64,000 nucleotides of DNA. Source: a virus (taxonomy: Duplodnaviria; Caudoviricetes). Position numbers and translations under genes: made by a program. Shown here in pieces: positions 54,946-63,194 of this stretch. Numbering within the stretch: position 1 is the first letter of the stretch; the number at the start of each line of letters is the position of its first letter. Location of the stretch: the IMG/VR virus record IMGVR_UViG_3300010340_001122. One strand, given 5' to 3'. The notes below the pieces were generated by a model that ran no database searches, was not told the DNA's origin, and was given only the letters and a program-made list of their open reading frames with translations.

Positions 54946-55779
54946 ATGAAGAATTTATTAATATTTCTAATATCCGTTTTTCTAACTTCTTGTTCTACTT
55001 ATAGTTCATATCAAGTTAATCCTAATTCATATACCGCAGTTGTTGTTGAAGATCCAATAACATATAGTATATATGATAATAATTTAGTATATTGGAACTC
55101 ACCTTATTACTCACCATACAACACGGTTCTAATTTTTAGTAACTACCAATATCAATATTATAATTGGAGTTGGAACACTTACTATTGGTCATCTAATTGG
55201 TATGCTTGGAATAACTGGAACCCTTATCAAAATTGGAATGGTTGGAACTATTCTAATAACTGGAATGGTTGGAACTATTCTAATAACTGGAACGGTTGGA
55301 ACTATTCTAATAACTGGAACAACTGGGGATGTCAAAATAATAACATCTATATAAATAATAATTATTTCGGTGGTAAAAAATCATATAATTATGGATTGGG
55401 TGGTAAATATACAAACACGGAAAAATTTAAATTAAAGCCTTACACACAAACTAGTTCGGAAAAGTCACTCAGACCAGAAAATGTACATATTAATAAGGTA
55501 GAAGAAACTCTAAAATTTAGACCGATTCAACAATCTAGACCAGAAACTAGACCTGTTCAACAATATAACTCACAATCTAGACCGATTCAATCTAGACCAG
55601 AAACTAGACCGATTCAATCTAGACCAGAAACTAGACCGGTTCAACAATCTAGACCAGAAACTAGACCGGTTCAACAATCTAGACCAGAAACTAGACCTGT
55701 TCAACAATCTAGACCAGAAACTAGACCTGTTCAACAATACAAAACACAATCTAGACCGATTCAACAAAATAGAAAATAA
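54946..55779 (+). CDS. lipoprotein with N/W/Y-rich and SRPETRPVQQ repeats
   Basis: LTSC lipobox; 27-nt and 30-nt tandem repeats. Confidence 0.75.
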   Translation: MKNLLIFLISVFLTSCSTYSSYQVNPNSYTAVVVEDPITYSIYDNNLVYWNSPYYSPYNTVLIFSNYQYQYYNWSWNTYYWSSNWYAWNNWNPYQNWNGWNYSNNWNGWNYSNNWNGWNYSNNWNNWGCQNNNIYINNNYFGGKKSYNYGLGGKYTNTEKFKLKPYTQTSSEKSLRPENVHINKVEETLKFRPIQQSRPETRPVQQYNSQSRPIQSRPETRPIQSRPETRPVQQSRPETRPVQQSRPETRPVQQSRPETRPVQQYKTQSRPIQQNRK

Positions 55780-55798
55780 ATTTGGTGGTTTAAAAAAG

Positions 55799-56007: not shown

Positions 56008-56038
56008 TTTGACATTATAGAAAACTTTTGTATATTTG
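56008..56038 (+). promoter_or_regulatory. Bacteroidota sigma-A-type promoter of tRNA operon 1
   Basis: TTTG (56008)-N19-TATATTTG (56031); second TAATATATA motif at 56071. Confidence 0.75.
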
Positions 56039-56086
56039 TAATGTAAAAGAAACAAGAGAGAAACAATTTTTAATATATAAGAAATC

Positions 56087-56194
56087 ATGACAACAGTTCG
56101 TACACATAAATCTTTTAGTAAATCGTTTAAATGGCATTTTAAAAGCCATCGATTCGGTACTAAGAACGAACTGCCAAAAAATGAGATAGTGTAA
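56087..56194 (+). CDS. attenuator leader peptide 1 (MTTVRTHKSFSKSFKWHFKSHRFGTKNELPKNEIV)
   Basis: 35-aa ORF between promoter and terminator; H/K/F/W cluster. Confidence 0.75.
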   Translation: MTTVRTHKSFSKSFKWHFKSHRFGTKNELPKNEIV

Positions 56195-56221
56195 TCTCGT
56201 AATTTTTGATAGTGAAATTCC

Positions 56222-56259
56222 AAAAACCCGAATACAAAAGATTCGGGTTTTTTGTTTTT
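56222..56259 (+). terminator. attenuator terminator 1
   Basis: AAAAACCCGAAT-loop-ATTCGGGTTTTTT directly upstream of first tRNA. Confidence 0.85.
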
Positions 56260-56263
56260 ATAT

Positions 56264-56356
56264 GGTGTCAGTAGCCGGTAATTGGTAACCGACCAGATTG
56301 TGGCTCTGGAATGACTTCAAAAAAGTCTTTTGCGGGTTCGAGTCCCGTCTGACACC
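56264..56356 (+). tRNA. tRNA-His(GTG), long variable arm
   Basis: G-1:C73, CCAGA-TTGTGGC-TCTGG, GACTT/AAGTC extra arm. Confidence 0.85.
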
Positions 56357-56361
56357 CAAAT

Positions 56362-56434
56362 GGAGCCTAAGCTAACTTGGTAGAAGCACTGGTCTGAAAA
56401 ACCAGAGGACCCGGATCGTAACCGGGAGGTTCCA
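56362..56434 (+). tRNA. tRNA-Phe(GAA)
   Basis: CTGGT-CTGAAAA-ACCAG; T-loop ATCGTAA. Confidence 0.85.
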
Positions 56435-56441
56435 CAAAAAT

Positions 56442-56515
56442 GGTGATTGTAGCTCAATCGGTAGAGCGCAGGTTTGTGGCACCTGAGGCAGCGGGATCGA
56501 AACCCGTCATTCACC
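56442..56515 (+). tRNA. tRNA-His(GTG)
   Basis: G-1:C73, CAGGT-TTGTGGC-ACCTG. Confidence 0.9.
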
Positions 56516-56524
56516 CAAAAAAAT

Positions 56525-56614
56525 GTACTCGCTCATAGGCGTGACCAGGCGGCTCCAACCCGCTCTCCGAAAGGGGTCTAACGATTGGTGAGGGTTCGAA
56601 TCCCTACGGGTATG
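56525..56614 (+). tRNA. tRNA-Trp(CCA), atypical (reduced D arm, long variable region)
   Basis: GGCGG-CTCCAAC-CCGCT; GGGTTCGAATCCC; G73. Confidence 0.65.
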
Positions 56615-56619
56615 CAAAA

Positions 56620-56692
56620 GGTTTCATAGCTCAGTTGGTAGAGCGTCGCCCTGAAGAGGCGAGCGTCGGCGGTTCAAGTCCGTCTGAAACCA
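56620..56692 (+). tRNA. tRNA-Phe(GAA)
   Basis: Canonical cloverleaf, TCGCC-CTGAAGA-GGCGA. Confidence 0.92.
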
Positions 56693-56698
56693 CAAACT

Positions 56699-56769
56699 AC
56701 GGGTGACAGGCTTGGTGTCGGTGGGATCTCCAAAATCTTCACGAGCTACTTCGATTGTAGCCACCCGTG
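56699..56769 (+). tRNA. tRNA-Trp(CCA), atypical D arm
   Basis: ACGGGTG/CACCCGT acceptor, GGGAT-CTCCAAA-ATCTT. Confidence 0.7.
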
Positions 56770-56776
56770 CTAAGTA

Positions 56777-56884
56777 CATAAAAATGGAATAAACAATGAT
56801 AATAGAATAGATAATTTAGAATTTTTATGTCCAAATTGTCATTCACAAACTGAAAATTACGCAGGTAAAAATAAATTAAATTAA
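56777..56884 (+). pseudogene. HNH endonuclease C-terminal remnant
   Basis: HKNGINNDNRIDNLEFLCPNCHSQT; no start codon. Confidence 0.8.
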
Positions 56885-56971
56885 AAAATGAGAACTATTA
56901 CAATAAAACGAAAATGTAAACGATAGGCAAATGTTCCACATATACGGACCATTTGCCAATAAAAAACAAAT

Positions 56972-57046
56972 GATTCCGTAGCAAAATGTGGCTTTGCTCC
57001 TGGCTTTTAACCAGGCTAAAAGTGAGTTCGACTCTCACCGGGATCA
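56972..57046 (+). tRNA. tRNA-Lys(TTT)
   Basis: CCTGG-CTTTTAA-CCAGG. Confidence 0.85.
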
Positions 57047-57091
57047 CAAAAATGTGTTCGTCGAGATTTAAATTCTCCAGACACATAATAT

Positions 57092-57175
57092 CCGTCCGTG
57101 AGTGAGCGACCGAAACTATCAGACTTTTAATCTGACTCCTAAAGGACAACACTGGTTTGAATCCAGTCGGACGGA
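57092..57175 (+). tRNA. tRNA-Lys(TTT), long variable arm
   Basis: TCAGA-CTTTTAA-TCTGA; TCC-TAAA-GGA arm. Confidence 0.8.
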
Positions 57176-57181
57176 CAAAAT

Positions 57182-57267
57182 AACTCAGTTCCCGTAGCTG
57201 GCCGAACGGCTCCGACTCTTAATCGGATTGCGAAAGCACAACGAGGGTTCAAATCCCTCCTGAGTTA
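57182..57267 (+). tRNA. tRNA-Lys(CTT), long variable arm
   Basis: TCCGA-CTCTTAA-TCGGA; TGC-GAAA-GCA arm. Confidence 0.82.
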
Positions 57268-57328
57268 CAAAAATCCGAACTCACGTTTAACTTCTTAAAG
57301 GAAGATACTTATTTTTTATATATAATAT

Positions 57329-58231: not shown

Positions 58232-58363
58232 GGGGAGGTAGCTCAGTGGTAGAGTATAGCTACACTCTTTTGAAACTTTACCTCTGAAAAGAGTGTTGAT
58301 CGAAAGAGTTACTTCGTATATTTTGAACATATAAGGTCGTTGGTTCGAATCCAACCCTCCCCA
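58232..58363 (+). ncRNA. tRNA-framed RNA with about 60-nt insertion between D arm and anticodon arm
   Basis: GGGGAGG/CCTCCCC, canonical D and T arms, TATAT-TTTGAAC-ATATA arm. Confidence 0.7.
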
Positions 58364-59278: not shown

Positions 59279-59587
59279 AAAAATATTAGTAAAGAAAACT
59301 GGTGATATTTTAACCACTTCAAATAATGAACTTCAAATTAAGATTATGAATTTTGAATTTGATTTAGAATATAACATCAAAGATAAGATTGAAAATAAGA
59401 TCACGTTCACACATCCAGGCGATTCTAAAACAAATCGAGAAGGTAAATATTATCTGATGCGGATTTTAAGACTCATTTTCAGTCAGTTAAAAAATAGTTG
59501 AAAATAAATTTGGTTTGTATTGTTTTTGTATGTACATTTGCATTACAATAATTAAGTAATCAATCACTTTCGATGCAGCCAGCCGGA

Positions 59588-59704
59588 ATTGCCGAAGGTG
59601 GGGATTACTTGCACAACAGCCCATCAGAAGCACAAAAGTTCAATGTAGTGCAATTGCTTATTAGTGGAACGTCAGCCCCCACTTTTGGCAATACCTTGTT
59701 AGCG
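59588..59704 (-). repeat. attC-like palindrome (one end truncated)
   Basis: ATTGCCGAAGGTGGGG / CCCCACTTTTGGCAAT; GTTAGCG end. Confidence 0.65.
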
Positions 59705-59743
59705 GTATGTGCTTATTGTCAAACGTAAATTAAAATTAATAAA

Positions 59744-60028
59744 ATGAAACAAGCAATTTGGAAATTTGAAACACCATTTGAAGATAAGTTTTCACTTCAA
59801 ATGCCAAAAGGTTCTGAAATACTTTCAGTTCAGCAAGACCAAAAAACTATGATACCTTGTATATGGGCTTTGGTTTATCCAGAAAATGAAAAAGAGGAAA
59901 GGTTTTTTGAACTTTTCGGAACTGGACATCCTATTCACAATGATATGGGAATTGAAAGAAAGTATGTCGGAACTTATCAATATCAACGTGGTGAATTTGT
60001 CGGACACATTTTTGAACGGGTGTCGTAG
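59744..60028 (+). CDS. cassette-borne conserved phage-type hypothetical protein
   Basis: IWKF...MPKG.EILSVQ...IWALV...GTGH...YVGT. Confidence 0.8.
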   Translation: MKQAIWKFETPFEDKFSLQMPKGSEILSVQQDQKTMIPCIWALVYPENEKEERFFELFGTGHPIHNDMGIERKYVGTYQYQRGEFVGHIFERVS

Positions 60029-60034
60029 CATTAC

Positions 60035-60166
60035 CGCTAACGTTAAAGCATTGGCGAATAAGGGGCATTTGAAAGACAAATGTTCAGCCTTTGCAGAATG
60101 TTTCATAGTAGCACAAAAGTTGAATTAACATCGTCAAGCCCCTTTTTTGCCAATGCAATGTTAGTG
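60035..60166 (-). repeat. attC-like palindrome
   Basis: CGCTAAC..GCATTGGC..AAGGGGC / GCCCCTT..GCCAATGC..GTTAGTG. Confidence 0.8.
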
Positions 60167-60250: not shown

Positions 60251-60282
60251 TTTGGAAATTTAAAAACAAAGAAGTATATTTG
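60251..60282 (+). promoter_or_regulatory. Bacteroidota sigma-A-type promoter of tRNA operon 2
   Basis: TTTG-N20-TATATTTG, followed directly by TAATATATA. Confidence 0.75.
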
Positions 60283-60297
60283 TAATATATAATAAAT

Positions 60298-60366
60298 ATG
60301 AAAGTCATGAACACTACATCATCATCGTCGTCAAGTCGTAGTTCGAAGATGGTAATGTATTGCTAA
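60298..60366 (+). CDS. attenuator leader peptide 2 (MKVMNTTSSSSSSRSSKMVMYC)
   Basis: 22 aa with 8 Ser and 1 Arg, between promoter and terminator. Confidence 0.8.
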   Translation: MKVMNTTSSSSSSRSSKMVMYC

Positions 60367-60381
60367 AAATAAAAATACACG

Positions 60382-60421
60382 AAATCCTCGAATTTGAAAA
60401 AGTTCGAGGATTTTTTATTTT
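60382..60421 (+). terminator. attenuator terminator 2
   Basis: AAATCCTCGAATTT-GAAA-AAGTTCGAGGATTTTTT directly upstream of tRNA. Confidence 0.85.
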
Positions 60422-60423
60422 AT

Positions 60424-60495
60424 AACCGTATAGTTTAATGGATAGAATTACCGGTTTCGACCCGGTAGGTGAGGGTTCGAGTCCTTCTATGGTTA
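60424..60495 (+). tRNA. tRNA-Arg(TCG)
   Basis: ACCGG-TTTCGAC-CCGGT; A20 identity element. Confidence 0.85.
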
Positions 60496-60552
60496 CTAAC
60501 CTCTGTAAATAGGAGTTCGGTTTTTTAATATATAAACTAAAAATCGAATTTT

Positions 60553-61401
60553 ATGACAGATGTAAATAAAAGAAGGTCTGAGAAAATGAAACAAAATTTC
60601 AAAGATGGTAAAATTAAAGGATGGGTAATAAATAATAGTAAAGATAGAAGAAGCTATCCAGAAAGTTTTTTCATAAAAGTTTTTAAAAATAATAATTTGT
60701 ATGAAAAATACAATATAGAGGAAAAATTTTCTTATGGTAAATACTTTATAGATTTTCTTTTTGTTGAATTAAAACTAGTTTTAGAGATCGATGGTGAACA
60801 ACACTTTGCAACAGAAGAAGCTATTAAACATGATATGGAAAGAGATAACTTTTTCTTAAAAGAGGGATTTAAAATATACAGAGTAAGATGGAAAGATGTT
60901 TGTAATAATGCTAAAAAAGAAATTGATGAACTTTTAAATTTTCTAAATAATATAGAGTCTAATTTAATTAGAAAATATATCTTAGATGATTCAGTTTATC
61001 AGAAAAAGAAAAAGAAATACATCCAAAGAAAAAAAAAGAAAAAATGCTCAGATTGTGATAAATTTATTTTAATGAAAAGTAATAAATGTAGAAGTTGTTA
61101 TCTAAATAGTTTAGAAAAAAAATTGACCAAACGAATAGGTAAAAATAAATGTGTGATGTGTGATGAAACTATACATGGTGAAAAATTTTGTAAAAAATGT
61201 TATGATATAAATCAGAGAAAAATTGAAAGACCGGATATTAATGAGTTAATTGAAAAAGTAAAAATTCTTGGATATTCTAAGGTTGGTAAAGAATATGGTG
61301 TTAGTGACAATACGATAAGAAAATGGATAAAAAATCGGCAGATGTGGGTTCGAATCCCACCGCGTGAGATAGCTACACGTAGTATCATAATAGGAGAATG
61401 A
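60553..61401 (+). CDS. DUF559/Vsr-like putative homing endonuclease (paralog of 57329..58222)
   Basis: SYPE..F, IDF...LEIDGEQH, YGVSDNTIRKW; C-terminus runs into a tRNA remnant. Confidence 0.82.
   Translation: MTDVNKRRSEKMKQNFKDGKIKGWVINNSKDRRSYPESFFIKVFKNNNLYEKYNIEEKFSYGKYFIDFLFVELKLVLEIDGEQHFATEEAIKHDMERDNFFLKEGFKIYRVRWKDVCNNAKKEIDELLNFLNNIESNLIRKYILDDSVYQKKKKKYIQRKKKKKCSDCDKFILMKSNKCRSCYLNSLEKKLTKRIGKNKCVMCDETIHGEKFCKKCYDINQRKIERPDINELIEKVKILGYSKVGKEYGVSDNTIRKWIKNRQMWVRIPPREIATRSIIIGE
61335..61366 (+). pseudogene. 3' half tRNA remnant
   Basis: TCGGC-AGAT-GTGGG-TTCGAAT-CCCAC without a 5' half. Confidence 0.55.
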
Positions 61402-61413
61402 CACCGAAAATAT

Positions 61414-61500
61414 GGAGAGTTGGTAGAGTCTGGCTTATTGCACCGGTCTTGAAAACCGGAGGTCCTTCGGGATCCCAGGGTTCGAATCCCTGACTCTCCT
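61414..61500 (+). tRNA. tRNA-Ser(TGA)
   Basis: CCGGT-CTTGAAA-ACCGG, long variable arm. Confidence 0.92.
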
Positions 61501-61505
61501 CAAAT

Positions 61506-61586
61506 GGAAGTACCCAGTGGACTGAGGTTAGGCGTCTTGAAAACGTTGAAGTGTCGCGAGGCATGTGCGAGTTCACTGCTCTCCGC
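61506..61586 (+). tRNA. tRNA-Ser(TGA)-like, degenerate T arm (possible pseudogene)
   Basis: GGCGT-CTTGAAA-ACGTT, variable arm; no TTCGA loop. Confidence 0.5.
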
Positions 61587-61591
61587 AAAAT

Positions 61592-61824
61592 ATTCAGATA
61601 GTTTAAATCGGAAAAACAATCCTAAAACGAAGGGATTCTCTTTTGAGGGATTTTAACTTGCTACTGGAGGCTGTCAAAGATATGGTTGTGTATTCAACTG
61701 ACATAAGACCAAAGGGTGTGAGGTTCTGACCACACGGTTGCGGATGCACTGAGATACACTCAGGAAGCGAGTTCTCCAAGGTCAATTTATGAAATCTATG
61801 TGGGTTCGATCCCCATTCTGAATG
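61592..61824 (+). ncRNA. 233-nt tRNA-framed RNA with large structured insertion
   Basis: ATTCAGA/TCTGAAT acceptor, D arm, T arm GTGGG-TTCGATC-CCCAT, several internal stems. Confidence 0.7.
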
Positions 61825-61829
61825 CAAAT

Positions 61830-61902
61830 GGTTCCATCGTCCAATTGGATAGGACGTATCTTTGCGAAAGATATAATGTGAGTTCGAATCTCACTGGGAC
61901 TA
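61830..61902 (+). tRNA. tRNA-Arg(GCG)
   Basis: TATCT-TTGCGAA-AGATA; A20. Confidence 0.87.
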
Positions 61903-61909
61903 CAATCTT

Positions 61910-61999
61910 AGAGGAGTCATCCGAAATTGGTATCGGTCCGGCCTGGAAAGTCGGTCATCGGGATAACCTGATGTGTGGGTTCGAGTCCCATTTCCTCTG
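61910..61999 (+). tRNA. tRNA-Ser(GGA)
   Basis: CCGGC-CTGGAAA-GTCGG, long variable arm, G73. Confidence 0.87.
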
Positions 62000-62311
62000 C
62001 TAAATATCTATATTATAGAGTTTATTATACGCATTTTCTAATTTATCAATTTCCTTCTCTATTTTTTCCAATAATTCATTTTTAGTCATAGTCATTTTAA
62101 CTATTTCTGTATGATACCAATCACCTGATGGTCTTGAAGAATATTTAAAAATTAAATTATCATAAATAAAATAATCATCATAAATATAATATTCAGAAGC
62201 TTCATCAAAAAAATCATCACCTACAGATACACTTCCTGATTCTATCGCTCTTTTAAAAATTTTACCTATTTCATCATTTAATTTACTTTCAAATTTTGAT
62301 AAATATTTCAT
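62000..62311 (-). CDS. hypothetical protein with MKYLSKFE tag
   Basis: Start reassigned to the tag ATG; TATATA upstream. Confidence 0.65.
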   Translation of the reverse strand: MKYLSKFESKLNDEIGKIFKRAIESGSVSVGDDFFDEASEYYIYDDYFIYDNLIFKYSSRPSGDWYHTEIVKMTMTKNELLEKIEKEIDKLENAYNKLYNIDI

Positions 62312-63002: not shown

Positions 63003-63033
63003 TTTGGAAGTTTTAAAACTTTTTGTATATTTG
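63003..63033 (+). promoter_or_regulatory. Bacteroidota sigma-A-type promoter of attenuated unit 3
   Basis: TTTG-N19-TATATTTG. Confidence 0.75.
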
Positions 63034-63067
63034 TAATATAAATAAATAATAAATAAAGACACATAAA

Positions 63068-63103
63068 ATGAAAACAATGTACTACATATTCAGAAATGAT
63101 TGA
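63068..63103 (+). CDS. attenuator leader peptide 3 (MKTMYYIFRND)
   Basis: 11-aa ORF between promoter and tandem terminators. Confidence 0.6.
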   Translation: MKTMYYIFRND

Positions 63104-63132
63104 TCAAGGTCAGTAGTGCTATAACTATATCT

Positions 63133-63194
63133 ACCCAGTCAATCAAAAATTGACTGGGTTTTTTTTACCCAGTTATTCCGAACTGGGTTTTTTT
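63133..63194 (+). terminator. tandem attenuator terminators
   Basis: ACCCAGTCAAT/ATTGACTGGGT + T-run, then ACCCAGTT/AACTGGGT + T-run. Confidence 0.85.

Follow-up and report, generated by a model that had tools for sequence, protein, structure and literature searches.

A phage tRNA operon preceded by a probable ribosome-mediated transcription attenuator

The leader-peptide attenuators of Escherichia coli and Salmonella, such as trpL, hisL, leuL, and pheL, combine a short ORF containing regulatory codons with mutually exclusive 1:2, 2:3, and 3:4 RNA folds and an intrinsic terminator, and they control biosynthetic enzymes (PMC1183508). Some leaders respond to several amino acids; that of ilvGMEDA is 32 aa long with 15 branched-chain residues (PMC6123439). 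The thrL leader likewise integrates Thr and Ile. Among genes for the translation machinery, pheST synthetase is controlled by the pheM attenuator, and T-boxes control synthetase genes and, in clostridia, a few tRNA genes. The reason for the presence of tRNA genes in phages has been an open question for about 50 years; one account describes phage tRNAs as replacing host tRNAs cut by anticodon nucleases, and the passages searched mention no sensing or regulatory element for them (PMC10264068). No description of an attenuator on tRNA genes was found in the literature searched, whose coverage mostly excluded subscription journals.

The locus described here lies in a 64,000-nucleotide stretch of phage DNA (the window). 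It very probably contains a ribosome-mediated transcription attenuator, through which expression of a phage tRNA operon would depend on the supply of the very tRNAs that it encodes. This reading is based on position-dependent folding, calibration with E. coli attenuators, covariation, conservation of the start and frame, and matching of leaders to arrays. In silico, the element has the testable features of a leader-peptide attenuator: a short ORF, cognate codons, a terminator, a covarying 2:3 helix, and the corresponding placement of codons. It shares with trpL, hisL, leuL, and pheL the short ORF, the regulatory codons, the mutually exclusive 2:3 and 3:4 folds (with a putative 1:2 fold), and the intrinsic terminator, and its computed ribosome-position profile is similar to theirs; it differs from them in being encoded by a phage, in having tRNA genes as its cargo, in lacking a Shine-Dalgarno sequence, and in having its stop codon 13 codons beyond segment 2. 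Like the ilvGMEDA and thrL leaders it would integrate several amino acids, but its inputs (His, Lys, Phe, and Trp) have no common pathway; the tRNA block determines them, and they are regrouped along with it from phage to phage. As with pheM and the T-box, tRNA status would govern genes of the translation machinery; pheM, however, controls a synthetase, and a T-box, which binds uncharged tRNA directly, would not be turned on by destruction of the tRNA, whereas a stalled ribosome would respond. No Rfam leader family (His, Trp, Phe, Thr, or Leu) was found at 56087–56259, and the T-box covariance model had no match in the leader. On the sister Ser/Arg leader described below, the Rfam His_leader model gave a match of 31.9 bits, below its threshold of 49 bits. 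Because multi-input leaders such as that of ilvGMEDA are known, the novelty is the tRNA-gene cargo in a virus, and not the four-way OR logic. The original prediction had regarded input from several amino acids as unusual; thrL and ilvL are known precedents, and sibling leaders in this study match 7–9 amino acids.

The window is AT-rich phage DNA carrying tail-fiber and homing-endonuclease genes. At the nucleotide level it matches LR745206.1 (635 kb) and LR756502.1 (642 kb) best and LR756501.1 (735 kb) more weakly. Five genomes larger than 634 kb are part of the Mahaphage clade, for which Bacteroidetes are the predicted hosts (PMC7162821). The three matching sequences are presumably among those five, and the window would then come from a Mahaphage-like huge phage with Bacteroidota-type hosts. 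Elsewhere in the window, the ORF at 54946–55779 contains two tandem peptide repeats at 55230–55780 (units of 21 nt and about 30 nt) and has no PHROG match, and two intergenic elements (59560–59740 and 60020–60160) have higher G+C and complementary termini and no at-threshold Rfam match. The elements preceding the tRNA genes are as follows:

56008–56038, plus strand: putative Bacteroidota-type promoter, with TTTG at 56008, a 19-nt spacer, and a TAnnTTTG box at 56031
56070–56079, plus strand: conserved AT-rich motif 5' of the start codon, present in nearly all orthologues
56087–56194, plus strand: leader ORF of 35 codons, with A at −3 and no Shine-Dalgarno sequence
56094–56173, plus strand: 1:2 (anti-antiterminator) hairpin hiding the antiterminator core, from the minimum free energy (MFE) fold
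56105–56143, plus strand: sensor region, codons 7–19 (10 H/K/F/W and 3 Ser codons), from the antiterminator-probability profile
56151–56158, plus strand: segment 2, a copy of the terminator 3' arm, pairing with 56228–56233
56175–56208, plus strand: inner hairpin across the stop codon, bringing segments 2 and 3 near each other, from folding
56222–56259, plus strand: intrinsic terminator (3:4) with U-tract, from a terminator call

The TTTG/TAnnTTTG promoter consensus is one that we take to be of the Bacteroidota type; the TAnnTTTG box also occurs upstream of Flavobacterium tRNA genes. The same promoter box was located 49–67 nt 5' of most orthologous leaders, and no host-type promoter box was found in the stretch from the terminator to the final Lys gene of the array. 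The AT-rich motif is a possible phage promoter or initiation element; 14 of the 19 copies of this type of motif in the window stand before an ORF.

Translation of the leader ORF reproduced the 35-aa peptide predicted originally, and the presence of H, K, F, or W at 11 of its 15 core codons was confirmed, compared with a background of 16.3% in the long ORFs of the window (binomial P = 1.6e-6, for a core picked post hoc). At least 11 such codons were found in only 10 of 51,255 stop-free 15-codon segments in the six frames, at four places. In the folding model, the region in which ribosome position controls the switch runs from H7 to K19; H21 and F23 fall outside it, and S9, S11, and S13 fall inside. 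The proposed four-input sensor was supported in that 10 H/K/F/W codons lie within codons 7–19, but Ser adds a fifth possible input, and the folding model allows the leader at least five possible amino-acid inputs. The conservation of the Ser codons, including the rare TCG, would be explained by their place in the strand that hides segment 2 in the inner helices of the 1:2 hairpin.

The nine tRNA genes downstream are of exactly the four types predicted (two His, two Phe, two Trp, and three Lys). They are arranged in the order His, Phe, His, Trp, Phe, Trp, Lys(TTT), Lys(TTT), Lys(CTT), with the first beginning 6 nt past the terminator U-tract:

56265–56357, plus strand: tRNA-His(GTG) with a long variable arm (ARAGORN, Rfam)
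56362–56435, plus strand: tRNA-Phe(GAA) (ARAGORN, Rfam)
56443–56516, plus strand: tRNA-His(GTG) (ARAGORN, Rfam)
56525–56617, plus strand: tRNA-Trp(CCA)-like gene, non-canonical, with a long variable region (ARAGORN at relaxed score only)
56620–56693, plus strand: tRNA-Phe(GAA) (ARAGORN, Rfam)
56699–56770, plus strand: tRNA-Trp(CCA) (ARAGORN -ps95)
56773–56883, plus strand: HNH endonuclease gene remnant within the array (blastn matches to annotated HNH genes)
56972–57047, plus strand: tRNA-Lys(TTT) (ARAGORN, Rfam)
57092–57176, plus strand: tRNA-Lys(TTT) with a long variable arm (ARAGORN, Rfam)
57182–57268, plus strand: tRNA-Lys(CTT) with a long variable arm (ARAGORN, Rfam)
58232–58363, plus strand: tRNA body with an insert of ~55 nt; no terminator called upstream of it

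Seven of the nine were called by ARAGORN at default settings and by Rfam, and the two Trp(CCA) genes were called solely at relaxed thresholds. The Trp-like gene at 56525–56617 was unscored by Rfam; it has an 88-nt counterpart in L071. Long variable arms are present in one His, one Trp, and two Lys genes, the Lys form being common in orthologues and the His form rare. The body at 58232–58363 is probably the last element of the nine-tRNA transcript. Its insert, possibly an intron, a mobile insert, or a functional domain, terminates with a 10-nt hairpin motif that is conserved. This ~55-nt insert is also found in the tRNA bodies ending the Lys run in L061, L064, L068, L071, L080, L083, and L088, and L026 and L031 have the hairpin motif in Leu genes.

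The 1:2 hairpin was the MFE fold of the leader (z = −5.1 relative to shuffles). Its outer and inner helices were as originally drawn, but the middle register differed: positions 56122–56125 pair with 56155–56158, the antiterminator core directly, and this register is kept in orthologues. Within the hidden segment, predicted to mimic one terminator arm and pair with the other, positions 56152–56157 were found to pair with 56228–56233. This antiterminator duplex has 6 bp and −6.9 kcal/mol, which places it among the weakest of the orthologues, and the window's own antiterminator was not better than that of a shuffled leader (p = 0.14). The register of the inner hairpin across the stop codon is poorly conserved in orthologues.

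Nascent RNA was folded with a ribosome placed at each codon, and the probability (P) of the antiterminator helix was read out. The computed profile supports the proposal that a stalled ribosome frees segment 2. P was 0.85–0.92 only with the A site on codons 7–19; it was below 0.3 with the A site before codon 7, 0.00 at codons 20–25, and 0.08–0.09 without a ribosome. The choice of footprint (+10 to +15 nt) moved the gating region by one codon, and an equally clean gate was kept by just 16 of 200 synonymous recodings of the leader. In five orthologues (L024, L072, L081, L084, and L085) the antiterminator persists in the model when the ribosome has reached the stop codon.

The identical calculation was performed for thrL, trpL, hisL, leuL, pheL, and ilvL of E. 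coli K-12. In all six, the antiterminator was present in the nascent RNA until the regulatory codons ended and was mostly lost beyond them. One objection raised with the original prediction was that a 2:3 helix of 6–8 bp might not compete with the terminator. Once the terminator 3' arm of the phage element has fully emerged, the terminator does beat the 2:3 helix, by 5.4–6.6 kcal/mol; however, five of the six textbook E. coli attenuators also lose the antiterminator at equilibrium, and this calibration led us to drop equilibrium competition as a criterion for refutation. Because the antiterminator in the window loses at equilibrium, the switch must be kinetic.

In the mechanism that we propose, RNA polymerase would start at the host-type promoter and the leader would be translated by a ribosome. 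If the H/K/F/W codons were read fast, the ribosome would cross segment 2 and the 1:2 hairpin would re-form behind it; the 3:4 terminator would then form, and the tRNA genes would be off. Slow reading at any of codons 7–19 would hold segment 1 open and leave segment 2 free to capture the emerging terminator 5' arm, and the polymerase would enter the nine tRNA genes. A shortage affecting any of the four codon classes, or Ser, would open all nine, and the new tRNAs would relieve the stall, a negative feedback. Of these events, we infer leader translation, polymerase pausing and coupling, read-through, and the trigger.

Pattern scans recovered 29 further distinct leader-terminator copies. The search pattern fixes the core codons, so that only other features count as evidence, and the good conservation of the core peptide among the orthologues collected is a result that the pattern enforces. 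An in-frame ATG was present at equal distance in 31 of 32 orthologues (L085 has no ATG). Frame-disrupting changes, which the original prediction had named as evidence against itself if common, were rare, with a single case among 32: L087, a close relative, has a one-base deletion after W16-H17, where the sensor run ends, with the sensor and segment 2 intact. Past segment 2 the leader sequence is variable, and the ORF ends at 28–35 codons. Every copy with enough DNA had a terminator followed by tRNAs, for totals of 60 Lys, 42 Phe, 39 Trp, 38 His, and 17 others, most of the 17 belonging to the neighboring Ser/Arg unit, which was not removed by the cut-off. Most orthologues, like the unit in the window, have tRNAs and mobile nucleases as their sole cargo.

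The covariation sought in relatives was found in the antiterminator, which was 97.1% paired in 34 aligned leaders with both-side changes at five of seven pairs; this covariation was reached in none of 500 shuffles, and slid registers were at most 61% paired. The terminator was 97.7% paired in the aligned orthologues, with both-side changes at seven of nine pairs. In L073 and L024, segment 2 and both terminator arms are altered together, and with one leader per arm type, pairing with a leader's own arm was stronger than with swapped arms (−10.3 vs. −6.8 kcal/mol, p = 5e-5). The inner helices of the 1:2 hairpin were 95–96% paired in 34 orthologues and the outer helix 70%, with little covariation. 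This hairpin was the MFE fold in most orthologues, and its covariation was not above that of shuffles on most measures. The RNAalifold consensus consisted of two short local hairpins and not the long 1:2 fold; we preferred the per-sequence folds. A scan of bacterial genomes gave eight Flavobacteriaceae matches, none of the readable ones 5' of a tRNA array, and in these the terminator sits after a tRNA or protein gene; the scan used one narrow terminator pattern, which cannot establish absence in bacteria.

For the comparison of leaders with arrays, tRNA regions from a further ten phage sequences were added, giving 11 phage sequences and 41 arrays. Leaders were chosen by a rule blind to tRNA identity; this rule mis-picked some starts, which were retained in the 41-array test as conservative. 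For the counts of codon spacing and of individual amino acids, one leader start was corrected and three leaders were dropped. Leader composition matched each leader's own array with a mean z of 3.84, compared with 0.00 ± 0.28 for permuted assignments (p < 1e-5), and in each of the ten sequences that have two or more arrays no other permutation scored as well as the true assignment, which twice was the best of 5040; related phages are not independent samples, and these p-values overstate the certainty. The groupings vary by phage (His with Pro/Gln, Trp with Ala/Asp/Glu/Leu/Val, Lys with Tyr), and the leader codons change accordingly. When the cognate tRNA was present or absent, respectively, the codon was in the sensor in 9/10 vs. 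0/29 cases for W, 9/9 vs. 1/30 for F, 8/9 vs. 2/30 for H, and 8/8 vs. 4/31 for K; for all amino acids in 24 distinct sets the counts were 103/111 vs. 51/369. The original caveat that K and F codons could arise from AT-richness is thus answered by codons that follow their tRNAs through re-assortment in other phages. The share of cognate codons was 0.80–0.90 at −7 to −4 codons from the antiterminator segment and 0.28–0.38 at −2 to +1; a peak 4–7 codons upstream is the spacing expected from the ribosome footprint. Sibling leaders had no common peptide motif, only a composition matched to cargo, and many of them form the antiterminator without a ribosome.

Further units of this kind lie downstream in the window:

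60275–62000, plus strand: sister unit with a promoter, a Ser/Arg leader (60298), a terminator, and Arg and Ser tRNAs
63026–63194: third unit with a promoter, an 11-codon leader, and a terminator, then an HNH gene

The Ser/Arg unit has orthologous units in L022 and L023. Within its array, positions 61504–61826 hold a degenerate Ser-like gene and a structured region of 230 nt bounded by tRNAs. Units of the third type in L022 (from 14758) and L023 (from 16742) are followed by a conserved ORF of ~65 aa, a HisRS-like gene, and RNA ligase genes, and may be stall-induced tRNA repair operons. A TrpRS-like gene (PF00579, E = 4e-38; L023:13396–14112) is located directly 3' of the His/Phe/Trp/Lys array of LR756502.1. 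On the minus strand of L037 (5270–7150), LR756501.1 has a Cys/Asp/His/Ile/Asn/Tyr block that holds all four queuosine-type tRNAs; no leader for it was found in the stretch examined.

Judging from sequence, the design is shared by three unrelated cultured phages. Cellulophaga phage phi10:1 has a leader at L113:2731 with a Trp/Ser/Tyr/Cys/Phe core before Tyr, Trp, Phe, Ser, and Cys tRNAs, and with a start chosen by hand its in-silico gating was on codons 3–14. This leader and three of the tRNAs (Trp, Ser, and Cys) are unannotated (L113:2710–3270), and all five tRNAs read U-initial codons. The tRNA genes of Cellulophaga phage phi4:1 (L114:9146–13020) and Tenacibaculum phage Gundel_1 (L115:5360–7168) are split into leader-gated blocks, in three and two units, respectively.

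With regard to what the attenuator senses, we lean toward a modular tRNA-pool sensor, in which each phage tRNA block is gated by a leader that those tRNAs decode, giving on-demand, block-specific resupply (and repair via the ligase unit) when particular tRNAs are lost to host immunity or to infection stress. The likeliest trigger is a shortage of functional tRNA, through host cleavage or degradation or through the demand of infection, because more tRNA cannot cure a lack of amino acid and because host tRNA cleavage in infection is documented (PMC10264068). Counter-defense against anticodon nucleases would give a purpose both for the tRNA cargo and for the ligases of the third unit. It is possible, but rather doubtful, that the same attenuator was selected to respond to uncharged tRNA, that is, to amino-acid or synthetase limitation, with synthetases or special tRNA bodies among the useful cargo. 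Classical attenuators do sense charged tRNA (PMC1183508), and the TrpRS-like gene and the HisRS-like genes behind third-type leaders would fit such a signal; however, the unit in the window and most orthologues carry no synthetase, only tRNAs and mobile nucleases, extra tRNA would not supply a missing amino acid, and the RNA ligases of the third unit fit tRNA repair.

The remaining explanations dispense with the codons as sensors. A general switch for translation failure or timing, set simply by the presence or absence of leader translation, with codon identity minor, is improbable: it would accommodate the sibling leaders that fold the antiterminator without a ribosome and the Ser codons inside the sensor region, but the unit in the window hides segment 2 when no ribosome is present, and such a switch has no need for codons that track the cargo through re-assortment. 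Slightly less credible still is action by the peptide itself, as an arrest peptide or small protein, or binding of the leader RNA by a protein or uncharged tRNA in the manner of TRAP or a T-box. Apart from the pattern-enforced core, the peptide shows variable sequence and length past segment 2, and its siblings share no motif; RNA binding has against it that no T-box or other leader family scored above threshold. Least probable is a constitutive or leaky terminator after a chance or vestigial ORF, with the tRNAs expressed through leakage or from a phage promoter. The ease with which AT-rich DNA yields Lys and Phe codons, the frameshifted relative, and the relative without an ATG are what such a terminator would explain; the permutation, per-amino-acid, footprint, and covariation results and the independent occurrence in cultured phages largely refute it.

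If the attenuator reading is true, phage tRNA genes provide tRNA conditionally and under feedback control, and the switch directly reports which tRNAs fail during infection. Under codon compensation, induction is expected in every infection, and under counter-defense only in hosts that cut tRNAs; the cultured Cellulophaga and Tenacibaculum phages with the same design make the trigger measurable. Should the sensor model hold as well, the groupings of tRNAs into blocks would record which tRNAs are lost together. On the attenuator reading, leader-peptide attenuation, established for amino-acid operons of bacteria, would extend to viruses and to tRNA genes.
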